Below are positions 34,239-64,000 of a stretch of DNA of 64,000 nucleotides, piece by piece; the first letter of the stretch is position 1, and the number at the start of each line of letters is the position of its first letter. The DNA comes from Candidatus Obscuribacteraceae bacterium (GTDB lineage Bacteria > Cyanobacteriota > Vampirovibrionia > Obscuribacterales > Obscuribacteraceae). The position numbers were made by a program, and so were the translations under genes. The notes beneath the pieces were generated by a model. It had not been told where the DNA came from. It saw nothing but the letters and a program-made list of their open reading frames with translations, and made no database searches. The stretch lies in assembly GCA_044229845.1 (NCBI GenBank), contig JBGASG010000006.1, positions 32,001 to 96,000 of the forward strand, given 5' to 3'.

Positions 34239-34464
34239 AATCTGCCGGGCGAACATTCTGCGCATGCCATCGGCGAACACCCGCATGGCATGGGCTACAC
34301 GAGTTGGCATTGGACATACAAACGCGCTAAGCTTTGCTGAATGCTACACGACAAGCCGGGAATTCCGTGGCAATATGCGGATGAAGACGTTCCACCCGAT
34401 TGGATCACAGGCACCACAGGTAGTGCAGACACAGACAACCCAACGGCGCCGCCGGCAGTGAATG

Positions 34465-36288
34465 CGGGACCAAGACAACAGGTAATGTACTCGCGATAAC
34501 GACCTACGACGCTGGTTTGGCTGGCGGCTCTAAAGCCGTCAACTACACAGTCCAGAGCGGCGACACGCTGAATTCCATCGCTTCGGGATTGGCGACTAAC
34601 ATCAATGCCGACACCGACCTCCAAGGGATAAGTGTGTCCGCTGTTGCGGTGACACCCACATCTGGTGTCTCAGTCGTCAATCTGCTCTCTGCATCAAAGA
34701 ACGCGACCACATATGCGAAGTCGTTGAGCGGTGGCGCTACGGAGACAATTGCCCTGAGCAAGAATGTCGGGGTGTCCCAAGCGACCTTCAATACGGTCAA
34801 TGAGCTAACCGGCATCTCGGCCGGTGGCAATGCCCACTTCGAGGAAACACTGACAGTCCGGTATTACCGGTGACTGTCGCAGGCAATGCTGTCGACATGC
34901 CGACATCTCAAAGTTTTTCGGGGAATGCCGCGCTGTCGTCGGGGAGTAACAGTATCAGCGTGAGCGCCACTGCTGGCGGCGGAAGTGGTACAACTACAAA
35001 TACCCACAAGCTAGAAGTGGTGGGCGCTGGCAGCCAGACGCTGACCTACGACGACAACGGCAACCTAACCAGCGACGGAACGAATTCCTTCGCATGGGAC
35101 GCCGAAAACCGACTGATTCAGATTACTTATCCCAGTTCGGGAAATAAAACCGAGTTTGTGTACGGGCCAACTGGCGGCCGGATGAAGATCGTCGAGACGG
35201 TATCCGGGAGCATAACGAGCACTAAGCAGTTCGTCGGTCCTGAGGAGCGCGATGCAAATGGCGATGTTTCTACGAAGTTTTTCGCAGGTGGACAGGTAAC
35301 CGGTGCATCACTTTTCTACTACACGAAAGACCAGTTAGGTTCAGTCCGCGAAATGTGCGACGACACTGGCGCTTCTCAAGCGTTATACGCTTTTGATTTG
35401 ATTGGGAGACCTACAAAACTAGAGGGTGCAGAGGAAAGTGATGTCCAGTTTGGCGGAATGTACATACATCGAAGAAGTGGTTTAAGTTTAGCTTCGTATC
35501 GAGAGTTCAGCGCAAAACTTGGACGATGGCTGAGTAGGGATCCCATCGGCGAGGATGGCGGCTCAAACCTGTATGCGTATGGTGCGAACGATCCCGTTGG
35601 TTCTGTCGATCCAAGTGGTCTGCTAAAGTTCTGCCTGTCTGCCCAGAAAGGACGGGGGCTGGCAGGGTTCTTAGGTTACCGAGGGTACCAAGGTCCCCCA
35701 ATTGGACCCCCCGTATACCCCCCGATTGACACAGGAGGCAGCTCCGGTTCTGGAGACGGTGGCGGAGGTGGAGATCCTTCATTCGGTCCCGTAGCTGGTC
35801 CCCCCATCAAAATACCAGGTAGCAATGGGCAACCCACATGGCACTGGGGTCCAATAGGAAGCGCTCTCTCTCAAATGAGTAGCGATGACGCCGCAACCAC
35901 TGGTTTCTATACGGGCATGGCGACCTTAGGAGGAGCTTTAGCAGGCGGCATGATGGCTGCTAGCAGCGGTGGCGGTGGCGGTGGCGGTAGCTCAGGTCCC
36001 ACATTCATTGTAACTCCAGGCGGTACAGCCTATCCCGTGCCAACAGGCGCAACGGGTCCCGTGCCGACTTTCGTCCGCACGGGCGCAACTGCAGGTTCTC
36101 GAAACGGTAGTGCTTTTGTCGGCGGCAGGGGAGGAGCAAACGGACAAGTCCGAACAATGAGAATCATGGACCCGAAGAGAGGAGCCTCTAGGGGATATAT
36201 AAAGTACGAAAACGCAAACGAGCAAGGCGTCAACCCTTATACTGGTCGAACTGGATCAGATGCCGAGACGCACTTCATGATTGATTAG
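34465..36288 (+). pseudogene. 5'-truncated, frameshifted Rhs gene with intact core end and C-terminal toxin tip A
   Basis: Near-identical to the inverse of ~61280-60600; 1-nt deletion near 34840; WLSRDPIG...DPSG core end; tip ending RIMDP...GYIKY.N...VNPYTG...H. Confidence 0.85.
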
Positions 36289-36300
36289 GCGGTGTGCTGA

Positions 36301-36777
36301 ATGACTCACGACAATCTGGCGCAACTCCCCCCCGCGGAGATTTGCTACCGAATTCTTGCAGGCAAAGAAATATCGGGCGTTCGATTCGGCTATCATCTCT
36401 CGGTGATAGTGGACGGATTACACAAGGGTTTTTCGAACACTGTCAAAGGCGAGTCCTTTGTCACCCTTGCTGGCCCATGGGTACTTTCTAAAGCAAACGG
36501 GGTGGATAACTGTCCAAAAGCTACATCATCTCCGGGCTTGAGCGCTGCCGATCAATTGATGCAAATTTCTCAGGTCGCCGAAAAGCTAATTCTGTCCGTT
36601 GAGGTGAGTGCGGACTCTTGTGACTTGCTGATCCATATAGAGGACGGATGGTTGCTGACGGCCAGCGGCGATGGTGATGAAGGGTGGCACGTAGGACTCC
36701 GGGATCAATTTAGCCTCTCCGTAAGGGAACGCGTGATTACGTCTCTGGATCTGTGTCTGCCTGGTGATGACGCATGA
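36301..36777 (+). CDS. Putative immunity protein for tip A
   Basis: Small ORF immediately after the Rhs stop codon. Confidence 0.6.
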   Translation: MTHDNLAQLPPAEICYRILAGKEISGVRFGYHLSVIVDGLHKGFSNTVKGESFVTLAGPWVLSKANGVDNCPKATSSPGLSAADQLMQISQVAEKLILSVEVSADSCDLLIHIEDGWLLTASGDGDEGWHVGLRDQFSLSVRERVITSLDLCLPGDDA

Positions 36778-37033
36778 TCTCTGTGACCGGCGATGCAACG
36801 CTCACTCCAGGTAAGCGAAGCATAGTTCCCCAATGGTCTGCACTGCCTGTGTGCTTCTTTATAATCGTCCTTCATTTTTCGCGAACAGCCGGACAAAGAG
36901 AAAGGGAGGACCACCATTTTTGAAAGCGGTATCAAAGCTTTGGCACTTTCTCGCAATTGGGCATCTGTGCACGGTTCAGCGGGACCACTCAACATGCCGC
37001 CGCTGCGCGCGCGTAAGTGCAGGTTAAAGAGGG

Positions 37034-37162
37034 CACTACTCACAGCCCGAAACCCGCAGAGAATGGGCGTTTATCCGTATACCAAAAATGCAGAAGTGAT
37101 ACCAAACCCACTACTCACAGCTCGAAAGAGCCAGCCAGTCAGAGTTTATCCGTATACCAAAA
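37034..37162 (+). repeat. Bipartite direct repeat, 75-bp period
   Basis: CACTACTCACAGCYCGAAA-N16-GTTTATCCGTATACCAAAA occurs twice. Confidence 0.8.
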
Positions 37163-37596
37163 TCTCACTTCACCCCTGATCAGCACCCCGCAAAAACAAA
37201 TTCGCGGTCCCTTGTTGCCTGAATGTTCCCGACCGTGCCTGGTACTGCCCGTGTGGTCCGCACCGTAGACGGTGTCGTATTGCGCAAGCATCGATTGACC
37301 GGCTATATTGAGCAAATGCGATAGAAACGCGCCCGCAGACGGAAGCCCGCGTGTTCCGGTCGCAAATCTCTCACGCAAGCATCGAACAACGGTTGCTTAG
37401 CTCAACGAGTACGCGTTCCTCCCCGGGAACTTGCCTGAAGGACAACCAAGAATTCTGCGCGTCAGGAAGCAGGGGTTCGCACAAGCCCTGGACTGATTCC
37501 ATACCAGACGCCGTCACTCGCTCTCAGCGACTCCACAGCGACATTAGCGCGCGCCTGCGCTTCATGCCCGGCACCAGCCGAGCGGCGGAGCCCTAG

Positions 37597-37702
37597 TGTC
37601 AAGGCCAAGCCCCTGCGGGGTGGCTCCTTTCGTCGCCAGCCTTGACACCAGGGACCTGCTCCGCCGCTATTCAGGCATGAGGGCATGGCGACTTGGCGCG
37701 CG
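37597..37702 (+). other. Conserved multi-stem element upstream of integrase 1
   Basis: GTCAAGGC...GCCTTGAC closing stem; homologs at 52453-52556 and 56626-56728. Confidence 0.75.
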
Positions 37703-37831
37703 AATTTTTCCGCTAACCGGAGCCTGGAAACGCACAAGCCATCAGCCTTCCGGAACATAAACTTTTTTCCGAACTGCATACATTGTGCTTACACAACTTT
37801 TTTGCCCACCCCAAATTTCAAAGGCGGACCG

Positions 37832-39043
37832 ATGCCCAAATTGACCAAATTGTTCGTGACCAATGCACCGCTCCCACAGAAGGGACAGATTATCTATCGC
37901 GACACCGCGGTAGTCGGCCTGGGACTTCGCGTTACGCCCGCAGGGTGCAAAAGTTATGTGGTGGAAGGCCGGGTGAACGGTGTGTTCCGTCGCATCACCC
38001 TCGGCAGAGAGAATGAGCTAACTCCCACCGCCGCGCGCAAAAAAGCCCAGAAGGTTTTGACCTCGCTGGCAGCCGGCAAAGATCCGATTGTCGAAAAGTC
38101 GAAGAAGAAGATTCGAGGGGCAACCTTGCGGGAGGTTTTCGAGCATTTCCTCACCGTGCGCAACCTGCGCCCGAACACCATGCGTACCTACAGAAATATG
38201 CTGCCCCGCTGTTTGGGTGACTGGCTCGATCTGCCGGTGGTGGCAATCACAAGAGAAATGGTCGAGCAGCGTCACATGGACCTGCGCCGCACCACCAGGC
38301 AGGGCACATCTGGCGAGGCCCAGGCGAACACAGTCATGCACGTCCTGGGTACGCTCCTTAACTTCGCAGCTGTCAACTACGAAATCGACGGCAAGCCAAT
38401 CATCCTGGTCAATCCAGTCAAGCGCCTTTCCAATAATCGCCGCTGGTATCCCGAACGGCGCCGACAAACAATTATTCCTGACCACAAACTGCCTGCCTGG
38501 TACAGCGAGGTCATGTCGCTGAGGCAGGAAACTGTCAGGGACTACCTGCTGCTATTGCTGTTTACCGGATTACGCCGCAACGAAGCAGCCACCTTGCGAT
38601 GGGCTGATGTCGATCTTGAGGCGAAGGTCCTCACGATCCGTTCGGAGATAGCAAAGAACGGGAACGAGCACCGCTTGCCACTAAGTGACTTTCTCGAAGA
38701 CTTGTTGAAGCGAAGACACGCATGCCGGGGGGACGCAGAGTTTGTGTTTCCTGGACGCGGCAAGAAGCCGCACATCATAAGTCCAGATTGCTTGATCGAA
38801 CAATTAGCAGAGAGGATCAACTGTCCGTTCACGCCGCACGATTTGAGGCGAACGTTTCTGACGGTAGCCGAGAGGCTGGCACTTTCATACGTGGTGCTGA
38901 AAAAACTCGCAAATCATTCAGGAAAGAACGACACGACCTTTGGTTATGTCGTGGTGGATGTCGAACGACTGCGCGAACCCATGCAAAGAATCACGAATGA
39001 ATTTCTGAGGCTGTGTAAGCCAAATACCGACGAGGAAGCCTGA
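37832..39043 (+). CDS. Tyrosine integrase 1 with N-terminal arm-binding (DUF4102-like) domain
   Basis: GLGLRVT...RRITLG; TGLRRNE, KN, HDLRRT, NH, GY catalytic residues. Confidence 0.93.
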   Translation: MPKLTKLFVTNAPLPQKGQIIYRDTAVVGLGLRVTPAGCKSYVVEGRVNGVFRRITLGRENELTPTAARKKAQKVLTSLAAGKDPIVEKSKKKIRGATLREVFEHFLTVRNLRPNTMRTYRNMLPRCLGDWLDLPVVAITREMVEQRHMDLRRTTRQGTSGEAQANTVMHVLGTLLNFAAVNYEIDGKPIILVNPVKRLSNNRRWYPERRRQTIIPDHKLPAWYSEVMSLRQETVRDYLLLLLFTGLRRNEAATLRWADVDLEAKVLTIRSEIAKNGNEHRLPLSDFLEDLLKRRHACRGDAEFVFPGRGKKPHIISPDCLIEQLAERINCPFTPHDLRRTFLTVAERLALSYVVLKKLANHSGKNDTTFGYVVVDVERLREPMQRITNEFLRLCKPNTDEEA

Positions 39044-39173
39044 ACGCCAATGGCGCATTTTTCCGAATCGCATACAATGAGCTTACAAGCCTTTTGAAAC
39101 TCGACGTCGCCGCAAGCGAAGACACCGACACCACGACGCATTGGCACCACCGGCGATGCGAGCGTTTTCAAAC

Positions 39174-40084
39174 AGATTACTTATCCCAGTTCGGGAAACA
39201 ATTCGGCTTTTACATATGACCCGCACGGAAGAGTGGTCAAAATTGTGGAGACTGTGGCGAGCAGCGTCACCAGCACAAAACAGTTGATTAACCTTGGATT
39301 CCGATTTGCCGAGGAGCGGGATGGCTCTGGAAGTCTTACCAGGCAGTTCTTCCGAAGAGGTCAGATCGTTGGAGCTACCAATTATTTCTATTTCAAAGAT
39401 CAGCTTGGCTCGATCCGGGAAATGACCGACGCAGCTGGTTCGGCAGTGTCAAGTTACACCTTCGATCCTTTCGGCAGGGTTGCGAGCATCACCTCCACGG
39501 TTGAGAGTGACCTGGGCTTCGGCGGGTACTACCGCCATCGACGGAGTAATCTGGACCTCGCATTGTTTCGAATATACAGCGCTGCACTTGGCCGCTGGAT
39601 CAGCAGAGATCCCATTCGAGAAAAGGGCGGCTTGAACATGTATGCATACGCGGGAAATATGCCGGTGCGAAAGTTAGATCCGACGGGATTGAGCTGTAAC
39701 AACTTCGACGACGATGAAAACTACCCTCCTGATGAAGACGATTGGTTGCCTTGGCTGGAGATTCCATCTTACACAACAGATCCACACATGGAAGGGGTTT
39801 TTCAGCTTCCTAGACCGAAAAGACGAATCCGTCTACGTTCATTCTTTAAGCCCTGCAAACCGGATAGTGATCCGCAATGCTGCGAAGAAAACCGTGTGGG
39901 CTGCGGATCAGTGGCGAGAATCGTCAATGAAAAGTTCGACTTGAGTCTGGATGAGTTTCAAAAGTTGATTGATTGTTGTGACAAGGCATTTAAGGAATGC
40001 GAGGAGCATTACCGCAGTGGGACAGAGTACCCCCAACATCCCTGGGAAGATTGCTTTAAGGAATATGTGATTTTCACGAAATGA
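39174..40084 (+). pseudogene. Orphan Rhs C-terminal cassette (tip B), starting exactly at the AGATTACTTATC core
   Basis: ITYPSSGNNSAFTYDP..., WISRDPI...DPTG, Cys/acidic-rich tip. Confidence 0.85.
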
Positions 40085-40184: not shown

Positions 40185-40844
40185 TTGTTCCTGAAAGCGT
40201 TAGGCAGCACAATTGAACGTAGAACTGATTCCCATCTCTCTTCTCAACGCCAAAGGATTTCAAAGATGGATGAAGAAACTTTCCGGAAGGTTCTTAGGAA
40301 TGGCTTCGTGCTAAGGGAACAAGCATTTGCTGAAGTTGGTCAGATTTCGCGAGGGCGCAAAGCTTTAGATTGTGCCGATCAGTTGCTAAACTGCGACGAT
40401 AAGTTGACTGGTTCCCAGCTTTTGGAAGTGCTTGTCGAGTTTACGCCCTTAGCAATAGCTTGTGGTGACTTTTCGCGAGCCTCAACCTACGTAGCGATGC
40501 TTGTGCAAATATCTCAGGAAAACACACATATGTGTCACTTGGCTTATACTGCCTGGATATTTAACGGTATGGTACTTCTCGGACAGGGAAGAGGCGTGGA
40601 AGCTGTAGACTCGTTGAACAGAAGCTCCCTTCCTCTGTCGCCAGACGGGAGTTTATTAGTACCCAGCAAACGCCTGCTCAACTTTTTACGCGAACTGCTG
40701 CATTCGGAAGCTGCCTTGATGGCGCATTCCAGAGAGGCAGTCGTTGGATTTGTCAGCAGATTAGTAGAAGGCATAAAAGATGAGCCAGGGAGACCAAACA
40801 AGCAGAACTTCTTATTATTCCTCGAAGAACTACAGGGAAGCTAG
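40185..40844 (+). CDS. Putative immunity protein (helical/TPR-like; start probably 40266)
   Basis: Directly follows tip B. Confidence 0.55.
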   Translation: MFLKALGSTIERRTDSHLSSQRQRISKMDEETFRKVLRNGFVLREQAFAEVGQISRGRKALDCADQLLNCDDKLTGSQLLEVLVEFTPLAIACGDFSRASTYVAMLVQISQENTHMCHLAYTAWIFNGMVLLGQGRGVEAVDSLNRSSLPLSPDGSLLVPSKRLLNFLRELLHSEAALMAHSREAVVGFVSRLVEGIKDEPGRPNKQNFLLFLEELQGS

Positions 40845-40976
40845 AACGAAGCCTGGCGTCGAACCACCAGCGGCACCACGAGCCTTCCAAAATCAAGTCG
40901 CGAGCCAGAGCGACGGTCAACCTACCTACAGCATGTCCGTCATTGTGTTTCTTAGCCCTGTGAGCTACGGCGAACG

Positions 40977-41347
40977 GCAAGATAAAAGGATGATTTCAAC
41001 CACCCGAAACGCGCACCACTGGCGGTGTTACACGGTTTCGCCAATGGTATCCGCGAATGCCGCATGCCTAGATGGGAAGCCCTGTCTGACTCGAACGGCA
41101 TTCGCGCATCGGTAGCGCGTTTCCGGCATCTCTTCGGAGTCTTTCTCATTCTGTCGTGGCATCGGTTTGGGCTCAGAGAATTAGCGGATTTCACTTCCAG
41201 ACGCATGTTCCTAGCTGACCCTATATGTGGTGGCATTGTGGAACAACGCGCCCCAGTGCGCGTCACTGGCTACTGACGAGCTAACTTCGCTCGAACACCT
41301 CACTCTCCGTGAGGCATGGCAAGCCGCAGGCTTGCTTCAACAATTGC
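40977..41347 (+). repeat. Conserved non-coding block (oriT-like), cut by IS66
   Basis: Inverted near-copy at 44360-44730; related blocks at 53220-53361 and 58570-58931. Confidence 0.8.
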
Positions 41348-41402
41348 GTGTGCGTCCGGTAGTCCACGTCGTTGGCAATTTTGCGTCGCCGTGGTTTGCT
41401 AA

Positions 41403-41915
41403 TTGCACATGCGGCGCTGCCAGTTCGAAGCTGCGAAGAGCGCCTGCACTGAGAGTATGCGAGGGCAAGGCGTGGCACGAGCAAGAAAAGCGGATAGGCA
41501 CCAAGACGGCGACGTGCTCCTGACACGGAACGAAGCTGCCGAGTATCTCGGCGTCTCTCCCAATACGTTGGCGATCTGGAGTTGCACGGGGCGGTATGAC
41601 TTACCCTTCGTGAAGGTCGGGCGGCTTGCAAAATACCAGAGGTCAACTCTCGATCAGTTCTTGCAGCGCCGCACCAAGCACTGGAACGGGACGGAAACGG
41701 GACGCGCGGACCGTCCTTCCAAGCCCCGCGAGGTTCGGTCTCAGGAAGTCGAATTCCGTGAGGTGCGGCTGGTCGATCCTCGCAGGACCGACATCGTACC
41801 GTCATCCAGCAGCGTGTTGGAGATCGTTCTACCAAGTGGTATCACTCTTCGACTACCGGGAGGATCTTCTCCAGACTTCCTTGCTTCGGTAATCGCTACA
41901 TTGGAGAAAGCGTAG
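41403..41915 (+). CDS. IS66 TnpA-like protein with an excisionase-type HTH
   Basis: LLTRNEAAEYLGVSPNTL..W; C-terminal LEIVLPSGITLRL. Confidence 0.7.
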   Translation: MHMRRCQFEAAKSACTESMRGQGVARARKADRHQDGDVLLTRNEAAEYLGVSPNTLAIWSCTGRYDLPFVKVGRLAKYQRSTLDQFLQRRTKHWNGTETGRADRPSKPREVRSQEVEFREVRLVDPRRTDIVPSSSSVLEIVLPSGITLRLPGGSSPDFLASVIATLEKA

Positions 41916-42322
41916 TGTTTAATTTGTCACCATCGGTGCGGATTTTCGTTTGCACAAAGCCTATCGACATGAGGCGTTCGTTCGACGGGCTATTCGGTCT
42001 TGTTCAATCGCTAGTGCATCAAGATCCATTTTCTGGATCGCTCTTTCTCTTCCGTAGTCGACGCGGCGACTTCATAAAAATTCTCTGGTGGGACCTCGAC
42101 GGCTTTGCCATTTTTGCCAAGCGCCTCGAAGTCGGAACATTTCGTTTTCCGGAAGTGCGGTTCGTGAACGGCGAGTATGAAGCAATCGAGATGGAACGAT
42201 CTGACCTTCTCCTGCTTCTAGAGGGCATCGACACCGATTCTGTGAAGAGATTGAAGCGCTACCGCCGGGAAAGCCCGGATCGAGCCAAAAGCGCCACCCC
42301 AAAAGTACCCGCCATGCGGTGA
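41915..42322 (+). CDS. tnpB: IS66 accessory protein TnpB
   Basis: PIDMRRSFDGL, KILWWDLDG, KRLEVGTF. Confidence 0.93.
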   Translation: MFNLSPSVRIFVCTKPIDMRRSFDGLFGLVQSLVHQDPFSGSLFLFRSRRGDFIKILWWDLDGFAIFAKRLEVGTFRFPEVRFVNGEYEAIEMERSDLLLLLEGIDTDSVKRLKRYRRESPDRAKSATPKVPAMR

Positions 42323-42405
42323 GCGATCAGACCAGTGCCACGGGCTGGTACTTTCGAGAAATGCGGAGTAAAACATAATAGAATTTTCCAAGACGCTGGC
42401 CGGCA

Positions 42406-44049: not shown

Positions 44050-44115
44050 ATTTCGCTACCTCAGGAAACCACGCCCCACCTTAATTTCCTAGGACGTGAA
44101 GAACCGGACGCACAC

Positions 44116-44328: not shown

Positions 44329-44779
44329 TCCTTACCTCGGAACACAAGCGCGGTTGCGCGTAATTGTTGAAGCAAGCCTGCGGCTTGCATGCCCCACGGA
44401 GAGTGAGGTGTTCGAGCGAAGTTAGCTCGTCAGTAGCCAGTGACGTGCACGGGGGCGCGTTGTTCCAACAATGCCACCACATATAGAGTCAGTAAGCAAC
44501 ACGCACCTGGTTGTGGAATGGGCTAAATTCCTGAGCCTCCGTCTGTGTCGCGACAGAATGAGAAAGACTACGCAACGATGCCCAAAACGAGCCGCCAATG
44601 CGCGAATGCCGTTCATCGCAGACCGGCAGTACCATTGAGGTGTGCGGCATTCGCGGATAGCGTTGACGAAACCGTGTAACACCGCCGGTGGTGCACGTTT
44701 CGGGTGATTGAAATCATCCTTTTATCCTGCCTCGCCTGCACGCTCGGTGATCACTGCTCTTCGCACGAAATCTGTTTAG

Positions 44780-48622: not shown

Positions 48623-48626
48623 GGCT

Positions 48627-49916: not shown

Positions 49917-50273
49917 TCATACACGGGTGCACTTGACTGTCGAAGGTTTGGGTCCTGGACCTGGTCCTCCGCCTGGTCCTGGTCCTGGTCCTGGTCCTGG
50001 TCCCGGTCCTGGTCCTGGTCCTCCGCCTGGTCCTGGTCCAGGTCCCGGACGCTTTGTCTTTTTGCAACATCCTTTAGCACTATCCTTAGTGCAAGTTGCT
50101 GGTGTCGAACAAGGGTGTCCAGGCACTTTCGAAATTGGTGGACATCCTTTTGGAAAAAATCCACCGGGAGGTAGCCCGACCGCTGCGAGAGAATCGCTGC
50201 CTATGCCTGCCCTGTTCAATCTTTTTACTTGTATGTCGAACATGTCAGCCCTTGTGCTGTCGTTCGAACCCAC
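49917..50273 (-). CDS. Candidate lanthipeptide precursor with a (PG)n tract (start uncertain: 50243, 50273 or 50402)
   Basis: FDIQV resembles the class I FxLx leader motif; Cys/Ser/Thr-rich core; directly upstream of lanC. Confidence 0.7.
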   Translation of the reverse strand: MGSNDSTRADMFDIQVKRLNRAGIGSDSLAAVGLPPGGFFPKGCPPISKVPGHPCSTPATCTKDSAKGCCKKTKRPGPGPGPGGGPGPGPGPGPGPGPGPGGGPGPGPKPSTVKCTRV

Positions 50274-50398: not shown

Positions 50399-51006
50399 TC
50401 ATTTTGTGTTTACTCCGGAAATAGCAAGTGGAATGGGTATTTCTGATTTGACAGGGAAGGCGAGATCCGCCGAATCCACTGAGGATGTCGGTTCGGCAAC
50501 TTTTGGTTCAATGGCAGCTTCGGGATATCCGATGAGATTTCTGTCAGTCACGCGATCGGTTTCGGGACTTAGGAATGTTGCGTTTCTCGCGCTATACACT
50601 CTGCTTGACGTAAGTCCTAAACCACTTCGAGAGTGCACATAGTATCCAGCGTAGCCAAACTCAGGTTCTTGACCGCTCGACTGAAGTTTGATGGCGTTGC
50701 CATACGAATCGAACGCTTGCTGCAGTGCTATCTGTCCGCTTGTATTCGTCAGCTCTCTAACGGAAAGGTCAAGGTCCGCCGTGTAGTAGTAGTTACCCGC
50801 TGCGACCGCCTGCCCGTAAGCAAACAGATTGGTGGTCACAGAGCCCGACTGATCCCTGACTGCCGAGGGCTGAGTGTTGTCCGGACACCAAATCAGCTGT
50901 TTAGTGCTTGTGATACTGCTCGCCACCGTCTCGACGATCTTTACTGTCTTCCCGAACGGATCGACCGTTAATTTGGTGTCATTTCCCATTCCCTGATAAG
51001 TAATCT
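50399..51006 (-). pseudogene. Orphan, degenerate Rhs C-terminal cassette starting at the core
   Basis: ITY....VKIVETVASSITSTKQ, FGYAGYYVHSRSGL; lacks the DPxG end. Confidence 0.75.
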
Positions 51007-51135
51007 TTTCGAAAGCTGCGCATCGCCGGTGGTGCTATGGTGCACAGGACGCGGCAATCGGGCACGAACGATTGGTGTCCGATTTTCACTGCAGACGCAG
51101 TGTAGACGGCCCTCCGAAAGTGGCTTATCACGGAA

Positions 51136-52344: not shown

Positions 52345-53804
52345 GCTGTCTGCTTCTTGAAATTTGGGGTAGATTGTTAAGCTGTGTAGACGCGGTGTAG
52401 ACACTTTTCAAAACGGCCGGTTGGCTGAGATGCCCATGGAAAGCCATGCTTCGCGCGCCAAGACGCCATGCCCTCATGCCCGAATAGCGGCGGACCGGGT
52501 TCCTCCAGTCAAGGCTGGCTCCGAAGGAGACACCGCGAAGCGGTTTAGCCTTGACGGGAGGGGGCCGCCGCTTGGCTTTTGCCGGGCATGGCGCAGGCGC
52601 GCGCAGCTATCGCCATGGACCGCCGGATCGATGCCGGAGGCAAGATGCGAATGCTGGGCAAGTTCGACTGCTATGCGGCGACCAGGCTCTTCAAAGGACG
52701 GCAGGTCGTTTCGTGGGGCAGGCTGCTCTCAGCGGGGCAGGCGAGTGCTGTTGAATTTTTAGGCGAGTTCCTGAAAGAGGAACGTTGTTGTTGATTCACC
52801 GGAGGCGGTTTCGTCAACCCTCTGGTGAGCGGCGGCGCAAGTTAATCGCGCATTGATCTAGGTGCGTGCTACTGCTTGCACGAATTCATCATACCGAGTG
52901 CCGCAGTCCTGCGGATATCGGGATAACCCTATCGACGCCGACGCGAGAAGCACTGCATATGGTGCGAGGATAGGGGAGCGTATCGGCAAGCCAAAAATTG
53001 AATCAGAAAACGTCAGCAAGTGTGGGTTGAACAAAGAGGATGCAGTAGTCATCCATCCAGGAAGCTGGTACTGTGTCAAACGAAGACCGCTTTCAGGCGC
53101 CGACCTGACGTTCTTGTTGCGAAAAGTGCCTCGTGAATACGGCGCAGATTGAGCACGACAGAGAGAGGCGGAGCGATACCACGGTGGTGACGGAAAGGCT
53201 TGAGAAGAATGACTGAAACGCAACAGCGATGGGCGACTGCCGCTCAGCGCTCGCCTGGAGCCAGTTTTGGGTGCCTGGCATTATGTGGGGTACTTTCTGA
53301 AATCGTGGCAAGGCACCGCCCGTGGTGCGTACGCCGAAATGAAATCATCGCTTTATCCTGCTGCTGCTCGCTAAAGCTCACAGGATTTGAAAACATGAAC
53401 GACGAACATTATACTCGTACATCGCCCCGTCGTCTGGGGCTCGCGAAGCGATCTAAAGGCACGTGTTGCCGCTGGTGGTTCGACGCCAGGCTCGATTCGC
53501 CAGCATTGCAAGCCTGCACCACCGCCGGAAGGTGGCGACCTGTTTTTGCGTTCTGATTTGCCGTCCCCGCACCGAAAGGAGTTGTGCCCGATCAACCATT
53601 TGCGCTCTAGTGATGATGGTGCCGCCGACAACAACTGCAAAGAAATTGCACTCAGCACAACAGCGACCTAAACGGCTCTGCAGCCAGGTGTCATCATGCC
53701 TTAAACTTGACCTACGGCGCGCAGCGAGCGGGGAAGATATTCGTCATATCAGGTGCTTACGTCGACGCCTATTCCATTCCCAATGCATGATCGCCCATCG
53801 CAGA

Positions 53805-54131
53805 CTAATCCTTCGAGGGAATCCAGATACGTTTTGGTCCCCCATGAGCCCAGCCGGTAAAGGAGCCGGGCGCGCCTTGTAGGAATTGCTCCCGATTCAT
53901 TGTTCCCTTCGCTAGCCCCCTGTACGGACGTACCGCTGATGCAGTCTCCTTACGTCCACTCTTTAGGTGTTTCAATTGGCTGGCAGCAATCTGGAGCGAG
54001 TCGTTGGTGGATTCCACAACAGGTCCCAATGTGCCATCGGATCGGTCGTCTTTCTTTATTTGCGCCAACACCGCTGACATGGACAATCCAAAGAGTAGTG
54101 CGGTGGACAGAACTATTCTAGCTATATACAT
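53805..54131 (-). CDS. Putative exported immunity protein
   Basis: Signal peptide; follows the Rhs tip. Confidence 0.5.
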   Translation of the reverse strand: MYIARIVLSTALLFGLSMSAVLAQIKKDDRSDGTLGPVVESTNDSLQIAASQLKHLKSGRKETASAVRPYRGLAKGTMNREQFLQGAPGSFTGWAHGGPKRIWIPSKD

Positions 54132-54148
54132 GGGTTACTCTCGGTTAA

Positions 54149-55125
54149 CTAGGTTTCTGATCTATTGATTAACAGGTCCAGTATCCAGTTTGGCGGATCT
54201 GGATGCCCTCCATCATCTGGATGGTTCGTCCAATACTCCACCCATTCTATCGCGCGAATCGCGTTTCCGGATTCGGGCAAAAGATCCGGACGATACTCAG
54301 GGATCTGCGCAGAGGGGAGATCTTCTGGAATGTCTGCAGGAGGTTCTCCCTGATGTTGCGATGAATCTGGATACTCTGATTCTAGGTCCCAAAATCCACG
54401 ATTATCTGTCGAATGGAACGGTCGATCAGCGCTCTCGCTCCAGCTGTCAGCTTTACGATCGTCTCCTTGCTGTTCCATCGTCTCTCCTGTGAATGGGTCA
54501 GATATCTGTGCCAAGATTCGAATATTGCGTGTCCCGGAACCAAACTGACCAAGATCGGGATCAGGTCTGTCTGAGTCCTTTCTCGGACAAGGCCACCACA
54601 TGAAATAGGTCCCCGATGGGTCGACAAAGCTAACCGGATTACTGCGTGAATATGTGAATAGGTTCAGACCACCCCGTTCTGCGATGGGATCACGGTTGAT
54701 AAACCTCCCCAGTCCAGGGCTGTACGCCCGTGCAACTGTAAGATTTAAACCGCTTCTGCCGTGCGCGTAGTAGCCAGCAAATTGAAAATCGCTGTCCTGT
54801 CCGCCCTCAAGTCTATTGGCCCGTCCGAATGGATCAAAGCTGTAAGCTGCCTGAGCATCGCCGTTATTGTCGGTCATGGTTCGTACGGAGCCGAGGTGGT
54901 CTTTTGCGTAGAAATAGTTCATGCCGCTGTTGATTTGTCCTCGTGAGAAGAACTGCTTCGATTGGCTTCCACTGCCATCGCGCTCCTCGCAGCGGTTGTT
55001 TGAGCACCATATGTGCTGCTTCGTGCTGGTCATGGTGCTCGCCACGGTCTCCACAATCTTGACCATTCTTCCGAATGGGTCATATGTGAAAGCCGAATTG
55101 TTTCCCGAACTGGGATAAGTAATCT
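54149..55125 (-). pseudogene. Orphan Rhs C-terminal cassette starting at the core
   Basis: ITYPSSGNNSAFTYDPFGRMVKIVETV...FINRDPI...DPSG; acidic tip. Confidence 0.85.
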
Positions 55126-55264
55126 TTTTGGATCGGTGTGCACCGCGCGTGGTGCTTGTACGACACAGGTGCCGAATTTTGAAATTGCGTTGTAAATAGC
55201 TTTCCGACGACTGTCGCTGCATTGTCGACAACAAAGAAAAATACGCGGTGCTGAAATACGGCTT

Positions 55265-56491: not shown

Positions 56492-56880
56492 TTCGTCGCC
56501 TTTGATTTTGGGGTGGTATGTAAAGTTGTGTCGTCACTATGTCGACGACTTGAGAAAAAGTTGCTTCCGCTATGGCTGATTGGATGGGGCTTTCCGACGT
56601 TTACTGCTTTTTGATTTCAAAAATCCGCGCCAAGTCGCCATGCCCCCATGCGGAATAGCGGCGGACCGGGTTCCTGCTGTCAAGGCTGGCTCCGAAGGAG
56701 ACACCCCGCAGGGGTTTAGCCTTGACAGTAGGGGTCCGCTGCTCGGCTTCAGCCGGCATGGAGATTTCCCGTCAAATGTCAATCTGGTGAACGCGCGCAA
56801 ACAAGTTCGCCAGTTGCGAAGCAACTGGCACCGTATTCAGTGCACTTCGATGTCGAACTAAGACGCTTTGAAGTGTGGGT

Positions 56881-57762
56881 TTACGTGGTTTCGTGCTTTC
56901 CTTGCGCAAGAAGGCGTTCAGAGAATTCTCTGATCTGGGGATTGTGTACTCGCGCGGCGCGTGCCGGCATGAATAAAGCTCCCCTAACTGCCGCACTTCC
57001 TCGTTTAGAAATACGATCCTTTTCTCTCACTGATATTCCTGATGCGTGTTTTCGGCTGGTCAATCCGAGAAAGCATGCTAAAGACCGACTTGAACGAAAG
57101 CGCCGGAAATCAATAAGCGTGAGTAGGGTGACCGCTGATCTGTCAGCTATTCCAGGGATCGTGCACAAGAGCGTGAAATCGTTGCTCAGAACAGGGTGTT
57201 GACCGATTAGCTCTTTGGCCCGCCCCAGGGTTTGCTCTAAATTAGACTCCGCCATCGCCAACTCGGCTTCGAGCTGCTGTTTCACAAACTTGGAGCGGAG
57301 TCCACATGCAAGCTGGCATCGGATTGCCACAGTTCGCTTTGTCAGCGAACGAATCAATACTACCGTGTCTCTCAGCTCCCACTCTAAGTTCGTCTTTGGC
57401 TGCCACTGAGGAAGTTTGTCAGAACGCTCTTTGCAGTATTCTGCGAGCAGGTACGCTGCCTTCCGATCAGAACGAATGCGAATCTCGTGTGATTCAGCGT
57501 ACTTCGAAAACTTGAGCGGCTGCGCCAAAAAGACGCGCGTCTTGCGTTTATGAAAATACTCAGCAACGATTTCACCGTATCGCCCGGTCGGTTCGATGAC
57601 TAAGTCGATACTCTGAATGCCGTTCTCTTCAAGCCATTTGACACAGGCTCGAAGTCCATGAGCATTTCGCGCAAAGCGCTCGGAAAGTGCTTTACCATTT
57701 GGTGGTAGAACGCAAATGTCAAACCATGGTTCGGATATATCCGCACCAGCTGGAACCTTCAT
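56881..57762 (-). mobile_element. IS110-family transposase, probably degenerate or C-terminally truncated
   Basis: GADIS, IEPTG, SDRKA (last DEDD Asp appears as Ala), IPGI, GL....ASG, ISKRG...R..L. Confidence 0.8.
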
Positions 57763-58163: not shown

Positions 58164-58559
58164 CTATTCCTGGTCCAGATGCTCCTGGTCATCTTTGAGA
58201 TGGCTGGAGGTCTTTTGTTGCAGAAATTGCCTCGCGAAGCTTTGCGCCAATTGCTTCAGTGCTATTTGGTCCTTCTCATCAACCTCGTACAGAGCGAGCT
58301 GCTCGGTGAAGAACCAGACCATCGAGATGGCTTTGCTCAGTTTGATCATCCAGCCAGCAAATCGGTCTTCCATTCGCCGCAGACGCTTCTCTACGTAGGC
58401 GAATTGGGAGTTGGTGGCTGCCTCGGCCCGGGCGACAATTCCGTCGCGGACCAATTCACGCACCATCTCGGCGGGGGTGAGCCTGTTCGCTTTCGCCAGT
58501 CGGGTGACTTCTTCTGCCATCTCCTTTGGGAAGCGAACACAGAATTGGGGTAAACGCAT
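58164..58559 (-). CDS. RHH/CopG-like DNA-binding protein (mobilisation-accessory-like)
   Basis: FCVRFPKEMAEEV..LA......AEMVRELV; lies downstream of the conserved block. Confidence 0.65.
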   Translation of the reverse strand: MRLPQFCVRFPKEMAEEVTRLAKANRLTPAEMVRELVRDGIVARAEAATNSQFAYVEKRLRRMEDRFAGWMIKLSKAISMVWFFTEQLALYEVDEKDQIALKQLAQSFARQFLQQKTSSHLKDDQEHLDQE

Positions 58560-59240: not shown

Positions 59241-59678
59241 CTATCTGCGTCCCAACAGCCGCATCATAGTCGAACGAATGACAGAGGCATCGACGCCACC
59301 AAGCGAACTTTGATTTGGATCCCAGTTTGTCAATGCCAGCAGCAAGTGTTCGGGACCAATAACCCTCATGCCCAGTTTGCTGGCTTCGACGTAACTAGCA
59401 CGAATCAAACTGAGCAGCCGAACGGGTCTGCCCATGCTCTGCCCAACGCTGTCTTCCGCGTAGATTTGCTCTGAGGAGATGCGCAAGAGGCTCAATACTT
59501 TTGCTGCAGTGCATGTGCCTTCCTTAGATATTCCGCCCATGATATCGCGCAATTGAGCATTCGGAGTTGCTGCATGTTCAAAAGCAAGTTTCAAAACGGT
59601 TCGAGCTTTTGGCGTAAGTCGAATCGGGCTCGCCTTTACTGATTCTTCTTGCATAGTGGCTCGTTGGGATAGCCCCAC
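59241..59678 (-). CDS. Stand-alone Clp N-terminal-domain protein in the immunity position
   Basis: RLTPKARTVLKLA, AAKVL, EASKLG...IGPEHLLLAL. Confidence 0.7.
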   Translation of the reverse strand: MGLSQRATMQEESVKASPIRLTPKARTVLKLAFEHAATPNAQLRDIMGGISKEGTCTAAKVLSLLRISSEQIYAEDSVGQSMGRPVRLLSLIRASYVEASKLGMRVIGPEHLLLALTNWDPNQSSLGGVDASVIRSTMMRLLGRR

Positions 59679-59684
59679 TCCTCT

Positions 59685-62600
59685 TTATTCAATGCCATAA
59701 GTGTCCATGCATTCCTGGACGCAATCATCACGTGTTTCCTCGGCTTGTCTTAGCTTAGCGCGTTTCTCATTGCCTTCGGGCATTGAGTCGACCTCTTTCA
59801 GATCAATTCGGTACCAATCATCGCAATCCTTGCAGCAATCGTCAAACGGATCCTTGTCCGGTTTTTGTTCTGGAGGATCATCGTGCCCGTCTGGCGGAGG
59901 CGGTCCTCCTCCTGCTCCGCCCATAATGACGGTCTCATCTGTCGGCGTCACGGGTGGACCGTCATCTTCGTCCTCGTCCTTCGGGCATGGATTAGGTGGT
60001 TGCGGATTAGGCGGTTCAGGCACAGGTCCCGGAGGCTGACTCTGATTGAATTGCTGCCAGAGCCATAGCAAAATGTCCATTAGGTCCATTTTTCTGATTA
60101 CGGCATTACCGCTTGGGTCCCTCCACATAGTCGGGCGATTCCCAACATATCGATATAGATTGAGGCCGCCCCTTTCTCCGATGCGATCGCGCGAAATGAA
60201 TCTACCGATCTTCGCGTTGTAAGCCCGCGTTCGAGTAAAGTTGAGCCCACTACGGGCATGCAGATAGTAACCGGCGAACTGAAAATCGCTGTCCTGCATA
60301 CTCTCAAGCGTCTTAGTCCTGCCAAAGGGATCAAAGCTATAAGAAGCCTGCACATCGCCGCTGTCGTCCGTCATTGTCCAGACGGAGCCAAGATGGTCCT
60401 TGTTGTAGAAATAGCTTGTTGAGTTATCGATCTGCCCGCGCGAGAAAAACTGCTTGGAGGCGTTTCCGCTGCCGTCGCGCTCTTCGCACCGAGTACTACC
60501 TGACCAAATATGCTGCTTGGTGCTGGTGACGCTGCTCGCAACGGTCTCCACAATTTTGACCATTCTTCCGAATGGGTCATATGTGAAAGCCGAGTTATTT
60601 CCCGAACTGGGATAAGTAATCTGAATTAGGCGGTTTTCGGCGTCCCATGCGAAGGAATTCGTTCCGTCGCTGGTTAAATTGCCGTTGTCGTCGTAGGTCA
60701 GCGTTTGGCTGCCAGCGCCCACCACTTCTAGCTTGTGGGTATTTGTTGTTGTACCGCTTCCGCCGCCGGCGGTGGCGCTGACGTTGACACTGTTACTCCC
60801 CGACGACAGCGCCGCGTTCCCAGAGAAATTCTGAGATGTCGTCATATCGACGGCATTTCCTGCGACAGTCACCGGCAGTACCGGTCTGTCGGTGTTTCCT
60901 TGGAAGTGGGCATTGCCACCGGCAGAAATGCCTGTCAGTTCGTTGACCGTATTGAAGGTCGCTTGAGAGGCCCCAATGTTCTTGCTCAGGGCAATCGTCT
61001 CGGTAGCGCCGCCACTCAGCGATTTGGCATACGTGGTCGCGTTTTTGGACGCAGAGATGAGGTTGACGACCGAGACACCAGATGTCGGTGTCACAGCAGT
61101 GGCGGACACACTTATCCCTTGGAGGTCCGTGTCGGCATTGATATTAGTCGCCAGTCCTGAGGCAATCGAATTCAGGGTGTCGCCGCTCTGGACCGTGTAA
61201 TTGACGGCTTTAGAGCCGCCGGACAAGCCGGCGTCGTAGACCGTTATTGTGAGTACATTGCCTGTTGTTTTGGTCCCACCAATGACAGCGGTCACCGTGC
61301 CGTTCGCTGGAAGGTCCCAGAGAATGGTTTCGGTTGCGCTGGTACTTCTCGACGGAAGGTAGGTGGTAGCATTTCGCGAGACAGATGTGACTGTTAGCAC
61401 AGTTCCTGATGATGAGGCAGAAACGCCTACAGCTTTCAGATCCGAGTCGGCGTTGAGTGCCGATGCGAATCCGCTGGTTATGGACGTGAGGTTGTCTCCG
61501 CTTTGAACTGTGTACGAAACGCCCTTAGACCCGCCGGATAGTCCGGCATCGAAAACCGTCAGAGTTAAGACATCTGCTGTTGTCTTGCTTCCGCCGATGA
61601 GGGCGTTGACGGTGCCATTCAAGCTTGGCCCGAGAGCGACAGTTTCCGTACCAGCGCCCGTGACCGACTTCGTGAAGGTCGTGACATTTGGCGAGAGTGA
61701 CTGAATGGCGATCACCGGTCCATTGGATGTCGCAGTGATGCCGGCTCCCGAGAGACTCCCGCTTCCGTTGATGGATGCCGTCAGAGCCGTGGCAATCGAG
61801 GTCAGCGTGTCGCCACCCTGGACTGTGCGGCTAACGCTCGTAGAACCACCGCCGAGGGCTGGATCATGAACGGTTATCTGAACGACGTCGCTCGTGGTTG
61901 GCGTGCCCCCGATAGTGGCGTTATGCAGAGCTGCATTCACGCCGAGGCTGGCGGTTTCTGTTGAACCACCGCTCAAGCTGGTCGCGAAGGTAGTCACGTT
62001 AGGAGACTTCGAGCGCAGCGTCACCGTGGTCCCGCTCGAAACAGCATCGATTCCAACCGATTGGCAATCGGAGTTCGCCGTTATCGTTGCAGCCAGATTG
62101 GCGGCAATCGTCGTTAGCGTGTCTCCAGAGAGCACTGTGTAAGCGACCGCTTCCGTACCTCCGCTCAATCCGCTGTCAGTTGCGGTGACGGTGATGACGT
62201 CACTAGTGGTTTTGCTGCCGCCGATCACGAGATTCTGGACCTGGCTCGTTTGCACGTCAGTCCGGTTGGCTGCGGAGTCGTAGGAGAAGAAGTGCTGGTC
62301 CGCGAATGGCGCGGGCAACACGCCCTTACCACTTACCGCTGCCGTCAGTTGACCTGCAGCGTCGTAATCCAGACCGAATCCCACGTGCCGGGTTTTCTGC
62401 TGCTGCATCCAGCGAGTGATTTGCCCCGTTGGATCTTGCGCATAGTTGAATTGAGACAATGCTTGCGAATTCGGATCAAGATTCCTTATCTCGCGTAAGC
62501 GTTGATCTTGATCGTTGCCGTACCAATCAAATGCAGTTGTTTGACCATTCGGATATGCGATACTGGCTAGTCGGGATTGTCCCTTTGAGACCCCGACGCC

Positions 62601-64000
62601 ATCATCTACATAGGTGAAGTCGAATTGTCCCAACTCGTTTGTTTCTGAGACGACGCGAGACATGCCGTCATAGACCCAATCGATCGAATTGTTTGTACCA
62701 TCTATAGAGCGGTTCGTCGTTCTACCCAATTCGTCATATTCAAAAGTGATATCAGAATTTGGAATTACCGTGTTCGTGATGGTTGCTAGTCTGCCACCAC
62801 CGGTGATGGGTGGATCGGTGGGATCCGTGATGTAATCGTTGTATTCATATTTATATGAGCCCCAACCATTGCGTGCCTCAATCAGGCGGTTGTAGTGGGT
62901 GTCATACGAATTGAGCACAGTAGAAGTCGCGTTGACTGCATCAACATACTGCAGCGAATTCAGAGTACCGTCCCAAATCCGATAATACTGCGTCTCCTGT
63001 CCGAGCGCATCTCGCTTGATTGCAAGGGCATTGCGATTTGTCTCCCAGATATATTTTGTGGTTGCATTGTCTTCCAAGACCTTCTCGATGACACGACCTT
63101 GCAAGTCGTGATTCCAGGTTGTTGTATGCCCGGCAGCATCGGTGAGTTCGCTGAGCGAACCACAAGAGCACCAGGTGTAGGATGTTTTCCTGCCTAGCGG
63201 ATCAATCTCGAATGCGAGCTGGTCCATGTTGTCGAATGAGCGTTGTGTGGTTCTCCCGAGACGATCTATGAAGAAGATCGCGTCAAGGTCTTGGAACACT
63301 GTCTGCTGCGTGGTCTGATCAGGAAATGTCGTTTTGACCAAACGATCCATGTCATCGTAGTCAAACGACAATGTGTAACCTTCCGCATCCGTGCTTGACG
63401 CGAGCGTTCCGTTTTCATTCAAGACCAGGGTTGTGACATCGTCTTCTTGAAGCGGACCGGTTATTTTTGTCAGGAAGCCATAGGCGACCGGCGACAGGGA
63501 GACGGTTACGCCGCCGGTTACCGCCTGGCTATAGCTCGTCGCGTTGACCGAAACAGACTTGATGGTCAAGTCTGCACCACTTGCACTCGCCGAAACGCCG
63601 AGGGTCTGCAGATCTGTATTGCCATTGATATTGGAAGCCAATGATGCGGCGACGTTGCTAGCCGTTTGTCCCGGCGTAGCGGTGTGAGATACCGTCTCCG
63701 AGCCACCAGGCAGATCCGGATCAGACACGGTGATGCTTGCCTGGTTGCCCGAGCTGATGGTGCCGCCTATGGTGGCATTCTCCGTTGACGTGTATTCGTA
63801 CGTCGTCACATTAGAAAGGGGATCCGTGACAGAGGTGAGCTGCCCGAAGACATTGTAGGTCATGTCGGTCTCTTGTCCTGAGCCGTCCATTTTTGTCAGC
63901 GGCAGATGTTGGCTGTTGTATGTGAATGTCCCAAGGACGAAATCATTGCTGTCGCGCGTTTCGTGAATTTCCTCCAAATCAATATTGTTTGCGGCATACT
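59685..64000 (-). CDS. Large Rhs/YD-repeat polymorphic toxin (5' end beyond the window) with inserted beta-rich repeats
   Basis: Frame open to the window edge; YD repeats, FISRD...DPSG core end, Pro/Cys/acidic tip. Confidence 0.92.
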   Translation of the reverse strand, partial: YAANNIDLEEIHETRDSNDFVLGTFTYNSQHLPLTKMDGSGQETDMTYNVFGQLTSVTDPLSNVTTYEYTSTENATIGGTISSGNQASITVSDPDLPGGSETVSHTATPGQTASNVAASLASNINGNTDLQTLGVSASASGADLTIKSVSVNATSYSQAVTGGVTVSLSPVAYGFLTKITGPLQEDDVTTLVLNENGTLASSTDAEGYTLSFDYDDMDRLVKTTFPDQTTQQTVFQDLDAIFFIDRLGRTTQRSFDNMDQLAFEIDPLGRKTSYTWCSCGSLSELTDAAGHTTTWNHDLQGRVIEKVLEDNATTKYIWETNRNALAIKRDALGQETQYYRIWDGTLNSLQYVDAVNATSTVLNSYDTHYNRLIEARNGWGSYKYEYNDYITDPTDPPITGGGRLATITNTVIPNSDITFEYDELGRTTNRSIDGTNNSIDWVYDGMSRVVSETNELGQFDFTYVDDGVGVSKGQSRLASIAYPNGQTTAFDWYGNDQDQRLREIRNLDPNSQALSQFNYAQDPTGQITRWMQQQKTRHVGFGLDYDAAGQLTAAVSGKGVLPAPFADQHFFSYDSAANRTDVQTSQVQNLVIGGSKTTSDVITVTATDSGLSGGTEAVAYTVLSGDTLTTIAANLAATITANSDCQSVGIDAVSSGTTVTLRSKSPNVTTFATSLSGGSTETASLGVNAALHNATIGGTPTTSDVVQITVHDPALGGGSTSVSRTVQGGDTLTSIATALTASINGSGSLSGAGITATSNGPVIAIQSLSPNVTTFTKSVTGAGTETVALGPSLNGTVNALIGGSKTTADVLTLTVFDAGLSGGSKGVSYTVQSGDNLTSITSGFASALNADSDLKAVGVSASSSGTVLTVTSVSRNATTYLPSRSTSATETILWDLPANGTVTAVIGGTKTTGNVLTITVYDAGLSGGSKAVNYTVQSGDTLNSIASGLATNINADTDLQGISVSATAVTPTSGVSVVNLISASKNATTYAKSLSGGATETIALSKNIGASQATFNTVNELTGISAGGNAHFQGNTDRPVLPVTVAGNAVDMTTSQNFSGNAALSSGSNSVNVSATAGGGSGTTTNTHKLEVVGAGSQTLTYDDNGNLTSDGTNSFAWDAENRLIQITYPSSGNNSAFTYDPFGRMVKIVETVASSVTSTKQHIWSGSTRCEERDGSGNASKQFFSRGQIDNSTSYFYNKDHLGSVWTMTDDSGDVQASYSFDPFGRTKTLESMQDSDFQFAGYYLHARSGLNFTRTRAYNAKIGRFISRDRIGERGGLNLYRYVGNRPTMWRDPSGNAVIRKMDLMDILLWLWQQFNQSQPPGPVPEPPNPQPPNPCPKDEDEDDGPPVTPTDETVIMGGAGGGPPPPDGHDDPPEQKPDKDPFDDCCKDCDDWYRIDLKEVDSMPEGNEKRAKLRQAEETRDDCVQECMDTYGIE

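Follow-up and report, generated by a model that had tools for sequence, protein, structure and literature searches.

So far, the acquisition and switching of C-terminal tips by Rhs and other polymorphic toxins have been explained by homologous recombination. C-terminal displacement and orphan-tip fusion are set out in the passages on rhs tips of Jackson 2009 (PMC2935791) and Koskiniemi 2014 (PMC3967940), and the displacement-proposing review knew of no integrase associated with Rhs. As in the locus described here, the displacement model has an intact rhs gene followed by headless tips and small downstream genes; an incoming tip shunts the old one and a circular intermediate is proposed, judging from the same passages. 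The present locus differs in that all breaks fall at one codon, the overlap spans 7 bp and each cassette has its own integrase.

The IntSXT/P4-like integrases (HPI, HAI7, KplE1 IntS) have the same PF13356 and PF00589 architecture and the same arm-domain fold as the integrases described here, with tandem arm sites near att in both cases. In the part of PMC8138268 devoted to the IntSXT subgroup, each cluster has a fixed target gene. The IntSXT/P4-like targets are tRNA, guaA or prfC, whereas here the target lies in the middle of the Rhs coding sequence, the replaced part of the gene is variable and about 300 codons long, and the specificity classes track one residue. The integrase gene here also points toward att, and the pair on its promoter side is therefore a separate copy 1.3 kb away, unlike in IntS.

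The R64 shufflon recombinase Rci works by inversion. It is a tyrosine recombinase that exchanges protein C-termini, as is proposed here, but it is without the arm domain found in the window integrases, and the cores described below differ in being direct repeats within each array, each segment having its own integrase. Integrons and the rAID-1 immunity arrays (bioRxiv 10.1101/471110) likewise link a tyrosine recombinase to a conflict-related cassette array; rAID-1 has one XerD-like recombinase per immunity-gene array, whereas here there is one arm-domain integrase per cassette and a proposed in-frame fusion with a resident gene. Identity with integrons was rejected, as TIGR02249 scored 16-22 bits against a cut-off of 265, there is one integrase per cassette and an arm domain is present. 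Arm-type sites, and islands that replace part of a target gene, are already known kinds; no description of integrase-targeted Rhs tips was found in the full-text literature searched, which covered a minority of subscription papers.

Here we analyze a 64,000-nucleotide stretch of DNA (the window) from Candidatus Obscuribacteraceae, an uncultured lineage (relatives named Melainabacteria) that appears to use a dedicated integrase for its Rhs tips. At a probability of roughly 0.78, we propose that these integrases insert and excise core-bounded elements stacked in Rhs genes, swapping the predicted toxin tip, and that the repeats flanking the integrase genes are their arm sites.

Integrases and the elements they end

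Int1, Int2 and Int3 are 70-75% identical to one another and all score above the cut-offs of PF13356 (the former DUF4102) and PF00589; with PRK09692 they reach 34 bits against a cut-off of 434. The catalytic set is complete in Int1 (R248, K275, H336, R339, H362 and Y372), with equivalents in Int2 and Int3. A model of the arm domain built from 31 sequences (pLDDT 89.5) contains H6-11, E20-23, three further strands and a helix, and its top folds are 3ju0, 3jtz and 3rmp (TM 0.69-0.78). Among 258 matches at E ≤ 10, the 3 at E ≤ 0.001 are confined to the HAI7 and HPI arm-binding domains and a P4-like attP complex. The single-sequence fold of a whole integrase, with a pLDDT of 38.8, was not used. Architecture, catalytic residues and modelled arm-domain fold suggest that Int1-3 belong to the IntSXT/P4-like tyrosine recombinases, are intact and possess an arm-binding domain. 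The source genome (G000) encodes six close integrases and two at 39-47% identity, and among 104 genomes of the family, 16 have close integrases (E ≤ 1e-110).

A Rhs fragment starts about 130 nt past each integrase gene of the window, at codons for K/Q-I-T-Y. The same codons occur in the upstream Rhs genes, where they are preceded by normal Rhs sequence (WDAENRLIQ), and the window therefore contains three elements, E1, E3 and E2 (Table 1). Each consists of a tip, a small downstream ORF, cargo and an integrase gene, and its terminal core begins the next tip, giving the order Rhs 5' end, core, tip, small ORF, cargo, integrase, arm pair, palindrome, core and next tip. The resulting islets of 4-5.5 kb are tandemly stacked within Rhs genes, one integrase ending each, and the layout recurs in relatives, one of them named Ca. 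Obscuribacterales. Contigs of public sludge runs confirmed the assembly; in run X10, one 4086-nt contig covers E1 core to core with no differences.

Table 1. Positions of integrases, repeat pairs, cores, Rhs tips and associated features in the window
Feature	Positions	Strand	Remarks
Truncated Rhs 5' remnant heading left array	34464..35119	+	B-arm side of E1 attL; Rhs homology from 34464; 106 open codons before core
Element E1	35120-39174	+	core to core
7-bp core/overlap AGATTAC	35120..35126	+	predicted attL of E1
Rhs tip of E1, 388 aa	35122..36288	+	Rhs core end, DPxG, variable C-terminus; TIGR03696 above cut-off
Putative immunity gene (by position only)	36301..36777	+	ORF 12 nt after E1 tip; no family matched
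GTCAAGG...CCTTGAC hairpin upstream of int1	37598..37646	+	z -3.6; conserved in relatives
Upstream arm-type pair of int1, class GCATACA	37776..37794	+	56 nt before ATG; candidate operator or distal arm
int1, tyrosine integrase with arm-binding domain, 403 aa	37832..39043	+	PF13356 + PF00589; class residue F52
Downstream arm-type pair of int1	39070..39088	+	103 nt from core; predicted P arm of attR (E1)
GCACCA-N4-like palindrome left of E1 attR core	39144..39159	+	candidate accessory-protein site
7-bp core	39174..39180	+	predicted attR of E1
Headless (displaced) Rhs tip, 302 aa	39176..40084	+	TIGR03696
Putative immunity gene (by position only)	40185..40844	+	no family matched
Last headless Rhs tip of right array, 201 aa, degenerate	50399..51004	-	TIGR03696 under cut-off, no DPxG
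7-bp core	51000..51006	-	predicted attR of E2
Palindrome left of E2 attR core	51020..51035	-	
Downstream arm-type pair of int2, class GTCTACA	51089..51107	-	100 nt from core
int2, 402 aa	51136..52344	-	PF13356 + PF00589; class residue V
Upstream arm-type pair of int2	52384..52402	-	58 nt before ATG
Conserved hairpin upstream of int2	52508..52555	-	
Putative immunity gene of E2 tip (by position only)	53805..54131	-	no family matched
Headless Rhs tip of E2, 324 aa	54149..55123	-	TIGR03696
Element E2	55125-51006	-	core to core
7-bp core	55119..55125	-	predicted attR of E3 and attL of E2
Palindrome left of 55119..55125 core	55140..55155	-	
Downstream arm-type pair of int3, class GTCGACA	55211..55229	-	103 nt from core
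int3, 408 aa	55265..56491	-	PF13356 + PF00589; class residue A
Upstream arm-type pair of int3	56528..56546	-	55 nt before ATG
Conserved hairpin upstream of int3	56679..56726	-	
IS110 transposase inside E3	56881..57762	-	
Ribbon-helix-helix (RHH) protein gene	58164..58559	-	cargo of several elements
Putative immunity gene of E3 tip (by position only)	59241..59678	-	
Rhs/YD-repeat ORF heading right array	59685..63977	-	last 311 codons = E3 tip; gene runs past window in second, overlapping ORF
7-bp core	60616..60622	-	predicted attL of E3
Element E3	60622-55125	-	core to core

The marks of Rhs polymorphic toxins (YD repeats, Rhs-associated core, DPxG and a variable C-terminus) are present; the C-termini differ among all window tips and TIGR03696 is above its cut-off in four of the five. 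The left head is truncated and the right one is divided between two overlapping ORFs, and intact heads of 2440 and 2507 aa, with signal-peptide-like starts as judged by eye, are found elsewhere in the genome. No named toxin domain was found in the five window tips, where the atlas gave leads at 0.78-0.81 only, and PF25218 (TseH-like) matched one of 21 proteins scanned from other loci. A link to a T6SS was rejected, PF05954 not being found in the source genome (88% complete). The 2440-aa Rhs (L180:3741-11063, on contig C13 of the source genome) has an N-terminal C39 peptidase domain, and LysM matches occur in the Rhs proteins of the window and of contig C1. Two further YD-repeat genes (window 10095-12755 and 13866-16793, minus strand) have no Rhs-core query match and no integrase nearby.

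The source genome is the only unbiased set for a census, the other loci having been selected by their integrases; in it, a close integrase precedes all six headless tips within 1.3 kb and none of the eight headed cores. Over 60 rows (the source genome together with the integrase-selected loci), an integrase of at least 45% identity lies within 1.5 kb in none of the 26 headed rows and in 23 of the 34 headless ones. The other 11 headless rows comprise two duplicate records, two at contig edges, one with an integrase 2.7 kb away that has a cognate arm pair, one with a 43% integrase fragment, three that resemble integrase-less cassettes or remnants, one after an IS transposase-like ORF and one after unrelated genes. 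No tip was found both headed and headless at high identity, long alignments being only family-level (29-58%) and the pairs at 100% being duplicate records, nor was an empty-versus-occupied pair found for any one locus. Two 2-kb tip cassettes with att-like left flanks and no integrase (L031:6768 and L032:3670, genome G014, in a seven-core array) are possible non-autonomous cassettes.

Repeat pairs and residue 52

The earlier note on this DNA, made from its letters alone, had reported six 19-mers around the three integrase genes, and all six are exact in letters, coordinates and strands. It had described them as tandem half-sites about 12 nt apart; the tandem arrangement stands and the spacing does not, each 19-mer being a heptamer, 4 nt and a second heptamer with a period of 11 nt. 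Nor is each gene bracketed by a private pair, as had been claimed: four site classes recur, and identical sites occur at other integrases of the same genome. The upstream 19-mer of Int3 recurs unchanged ahead of the C13 and C22 integrases, and the downstream 19-mer of Int1 recurs likewise behind the integrase of contig C1. The downstream pair is moreover tied to the att core and not to the integrase gene.

Cognate upstream and downstream pairs agree at 14/14 (Int1), 13/14 (Int2) and 12/14 (Int3) heptamer positions, and the six non-cognate pairings agree at 7-10/14. When the flanks were resampled, the best match between upstream and downstream 19-mers was equalled in 2/1000 (Int1), 1/1000 (Int2) and 156/1000 (Int3) trials, which is significant for Int1 and Int2 and not for Int3 alone. 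Genome-wide (5.16 Mb), the class patterns have 14 matches, 13 of them at integrase or att positions (12 at six integrases and one at an integrase-less att remnant, C13:49623) and one stray, a result that is partly circular as the three patterns were built from these same sites. The constant distance of the downstream pairs from the core and the arm-binding domain of the integrases support the arm-type identity that had been suggested for the tandem repeats, and on sequence grounds they are likely arm-type binding sites of IntSXT/P4-like integrases. A similar design is seen in a 39%-identical integrase (G000:C1:92321-93520) beside a tRNA-like sequence (by eye), apparently a tRNA island, where a GGGTACA pair of period 11 precedes the integrase ATG by 51 nt.

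The co-variation of site with integrase, for which the earlier note had proposed an analysis across homologues, is borne out by that analysis: the class tracks the arm domain and cognate pairs exceed shuffled ones. Cognate upstream/downstream similarity is 12.28/14 against 10.36 +/- 0.31 on shuffling, a value reached by 0 of 20000 shuffles, in the 18 of 29 rows that have both sites (the other 11, which lacked DNA or sites or had an IS offset, were excluded), with kin inflating the result. In trees of 27 integrases, the arm domain requires 6 class changes, the minimum being 5; the catalytic part requires 10, and its well-supported branches force GCATACA and GTCTACA to at least 4 changes each.

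A single alignment column, residue 52 of Int1 in strand beta-3, predicts the class without error in all 24 labelled integrases: F corresponds to GCATACA (8), V or L to GTCTACA (9), A to GTCGACA (3) and N to GCCTACA (4). Independent pairs obey this rule in 5/5 cases (p = 0.0625). The rule, fixed beforehand, also fitted all eight later non-duplicate loci with a site (L130, L132, L134, L135, L136, L145, L154 and L040); in L140 (residue N) no site was found. F with GCATACA and V with GTCTAC recur among integrases that are 46-50% identical, and of 119 homologues the arm motif could be parsed in 87, 76 of which have F, V, L, A or N at the class residue. The class residues are few and recur among homologues; therefore, the site classes are not private. 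Most likely, the sites first reported are real arm-type sites with a small specificity code.

Neighboring integrases differ in class in four arrays (the window, C1-C22, L046 and G106:C228) and in one of two G014 neighbor pairs, the same-class pair including a frameshifted integrase; these small numbers are suggestive of orthogonality. As read from the sequences, the four site classes likely limit cross-talk between neighbors with a common core. Together with its one predictive residue, this natural series of arm domains and sites offers an immediate test of the evolution of arm-type specificity and might also supply orthogonal integrases. A 47%-identical integrase (G000:C1:1048432-1049673) has three GCCTAC pairs upstream and no core directly after it; it lies 1 kb after the intact 2507-aa Rhs gene in both G000 and the congener G001, and the Rhs tips differ.

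Core, predicted att sites and the upstream pair

The core reads AGATNNN and lies at the Rhs Q-I-T-Y-P codons, with one breakpoint codon throughout. It is found downstream of 24 of the 29 integrases examined (chosen at about 50% identity or above), in keeping with the earlier suggestion that the elements have a core target in common; that this target is a fixed codon inside Rhs genes had not been part of the suggestion. Of the five integrases without a core, three have less than 1 kb of DNA; for another the core lies 2.7 kb on, and for L040 none is present in 1.7 kb. Several integrases at 46-50% identity have tandem sites with no Rhs core within their short flanks.

When 19 headless cores from 10 arrays (6 of the 19 rows from G014) were each compared with the head of the same array, identity was 3/19 at -3, rose to 18-19/19 over -2 to +4 and then decayed at wobble positions (14/19, 10/19 and 9/19). 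At the variable positions +2, +3 and +4, bases agree in 18, 19 and 19 of 19 rows within arrays against 0.50, 0.55 and 0.43 between arrays. In the source genome, for example, the cores are AGATTAC in the window arrays and AGATCAC in the C1/C22 and C13 arrays, C1 and C22 being joined on the basis of an IS110 common to both contig ends. At both element ends the core recurs in direct orientation with the same overlap of about 7 bp; one array (G001) departs from this, 2 of 7 bases differing between its head and its own downstream core. An inverted repeat (7/8) flanks exactly these 7 bp in the P-side core of G014. These features suggest that the core behaves like the overlap of a tyrosine recombinase.

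Within a search window of -135 to -95, the downstream pair precedes the core by 100-106 nt in 16 rows and by 120-123 nt in 4; an unconstrained scan gave the same sites in the loci that it covered. It keeps its distance from the core where stop and core are 617-1279 nt apart, and in C22, L049, L050 and L135 despite 0.5-1.15 kb of extra DNA after the integrase gene, and is therefore part of att. In 15 of 24 rows there is also a 16-bp palindrome 28-30 nt to the left of the core; its loose pattern has 259 sites in the genome and is not diagnostic alone. The window contains no tRNA, and the elements are therefore not tRNA-targeted islands. With att sites defined to the base, the tip mechanism is testable in E. 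coli with short DNA pieces.

Searched for between -75 and -35 relative to the ATG, the upstream pair is found 55-59 nt before it in 22 of 29 rows. Each element has only these two pairs, and no cognate arm pair was found on the tip side of attL in E1, E2 or E3, unlike in a lambda-type attP. IntS represses its own promoter through binding to att sites, as described in the relevant part of PMC2951348. Since the promoter repressed by IntS overlaps att sites, the upstream pair is most simply an operator, and by this analogy we lean slightly towards a role in negative autoregulation; it might serve as a distal arm as well. A promoter/terminator scan of 37500-39300 was empty, with no sigma-70-like promoter over the int1 upstream pair.

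It is possible, if rather doubtful, that both pairs are instead arms of one looped intasome spanning the integrase gene, or that they serve integrase deletion and so yield non-autonomous cassettes, with autoregulation incidental. The presence of just two pairs per element would fit this, as would the G014 integrases, which have two downstream pairs and none upstream. In a decayed, integrase-less G001 element (L042:2950-3300, minus strand), the flank upstream of the integrase runs straight into the att arm no more than about 10 nt from the repeat; the repeats may therefore also allow integrase loss, although this remnant is a single old case. Against this reading, the upstream pair keeps its place relative to the ATG while its distance from the core ranges from 1.4 to 2.5 kb, and the autorepression by IntS likewise favors the operator.

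Proposed tip exchange, its alternatives and neighboring DNA

In the proposed mechanism, the arm pair would be bound by the N-terminal domain of the integrase and recombination would occur at the 7-bp overlap, steps that follow tyrosine-recombinase biology as given in parts of PMC8138268 and PMC2951348. The attP of the circular form would join the downstream arm pair and core to the 5' end of the tip, and would recombine with an attB formed by the K/Q/E-I-x-Y-P codons of the resident Rhs gene. Integration would fuse the incoming tip in frame to the resident Rhs and push the old tip behind the integrase gene; excision would do the opposite, placing the following tip in frame. The sites mark a family, recognized from sequence, of Rhs-targeting integrative islets in which toxin tips are likely exchanged site-specifically. 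We give even odds to the stronger proposal of active, site-specific toxin reprogramming, in which each tip/immunity cassette would be its own integrative element, stacked as in a magazine behind one Rhs gene, a one-residue arm code would give orthogonal integrases, and tips would be loaded and ejected without homologous recombination.

Alternatively, the elements arrived by integrase action and are now frozen, with true arm sites and no ongoing tip switching, which we consider unlikely. The same arrangement is seen in runs from 8 studies, and no excision or circle joint was found at any core in contigs of 8 runs; many copies carry IS66 or IS110 insertions, the two heads of the window are split or broken, and remnants are present in G001 and on C13. 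Contigs, however, drop rare forms, so that rare excision would be invisible in them, and 25 common bases would hide the E1 and E3 joints. In addition, all three window integrases are full length with their catalytic residues, and the arrays differ between the source genome and G001. Joints such as 52519-60595 and 53492-60513 were rejected as excision and fit paralogous repeats instead, and a loose end of run X9 at 60609 is the C1 Rhs paralogue. RNA runs, in which only 6-8% of words are present, were left out of the read evidence. In run X12, with loose ends at window 37704 and 37712, contigs with the integrase-upstream region continue into sequence that was not found in the source genome; we take these to be further family members in that community.

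It is very unlikely that RecA-type homologous recombination displaces the tips as in enterobacterial rhs, the integrases being passengers with another target. This is the standard model for rhs tips in the passages on them in PMC2935791 and PMC3967940, adjacent tips are similar over long stretches after the core (92% over 120 nt), and some headless tips have no integrase. However, the homologous model yields core fragments of variable length, whereas here one breakpoint codon is used across several genera; for divergent tips, e.g., at 51006, identity at the boundary is limited to about 7-10 bp, and the arm sites lie at a constant distance from the tip boundary. Least probable is the binding of the pairs by a host or accessory regulator, with co-variation through common descent, for although kin are not independent and the upstream site is physically linked to the arm-coding DNA, the downstream site about 1.1 kb past that DNA, beyond a discordant catalytic domain, still follows residue 52, and the F/GCATACA and V/GTCTAC pairings recur in distant integrases, as noted above.

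Returning to the integrative elements themselves, no transfer or replication genes were found among the ORFs scanned (only integrase, tip, small ORFs, the RHH gene and IS genes), and no relatives were found in viral contigs. The RHH gene is confined to G000 and G001 among the loci searched and is therefore not a core part; a role as relaxosome or directionality factor was rejected, with no plasmid match. A strong hairpin about 190 nt upstream of the integrase gene is conserved in the clade of the window; Rfam gave no match at E ≤ 1 over 30000-64000, and an oriT was rejected, again with no plasmid match.

Directly behind the last Rhs tip lie genes for a LanB-like dehydratase (1005 aa; 45605-49892, minus strand) and a LanC-like cyclase (49917-50402, minus strand), preceded by a Pro/Gly-repeat ORF and possibly the cargo of a decayed element. 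An IS66 (window 41346-44115) with inverted flanks (40969-41348 and 44359-44736) lies between the two convergent arrays, whose tails share one conserved cargo at their ends, inverted relative to each other. Another IS66 (G000:C1:1064310-1067035) sits in the start of a GCATACA-class integrase gene with an 8-bp target duplication, the upstream pair surviving on its far side. The cargo of E1 contains a two-copy 54-nt direct repeat, 75 nt apart (window 37034-37164).
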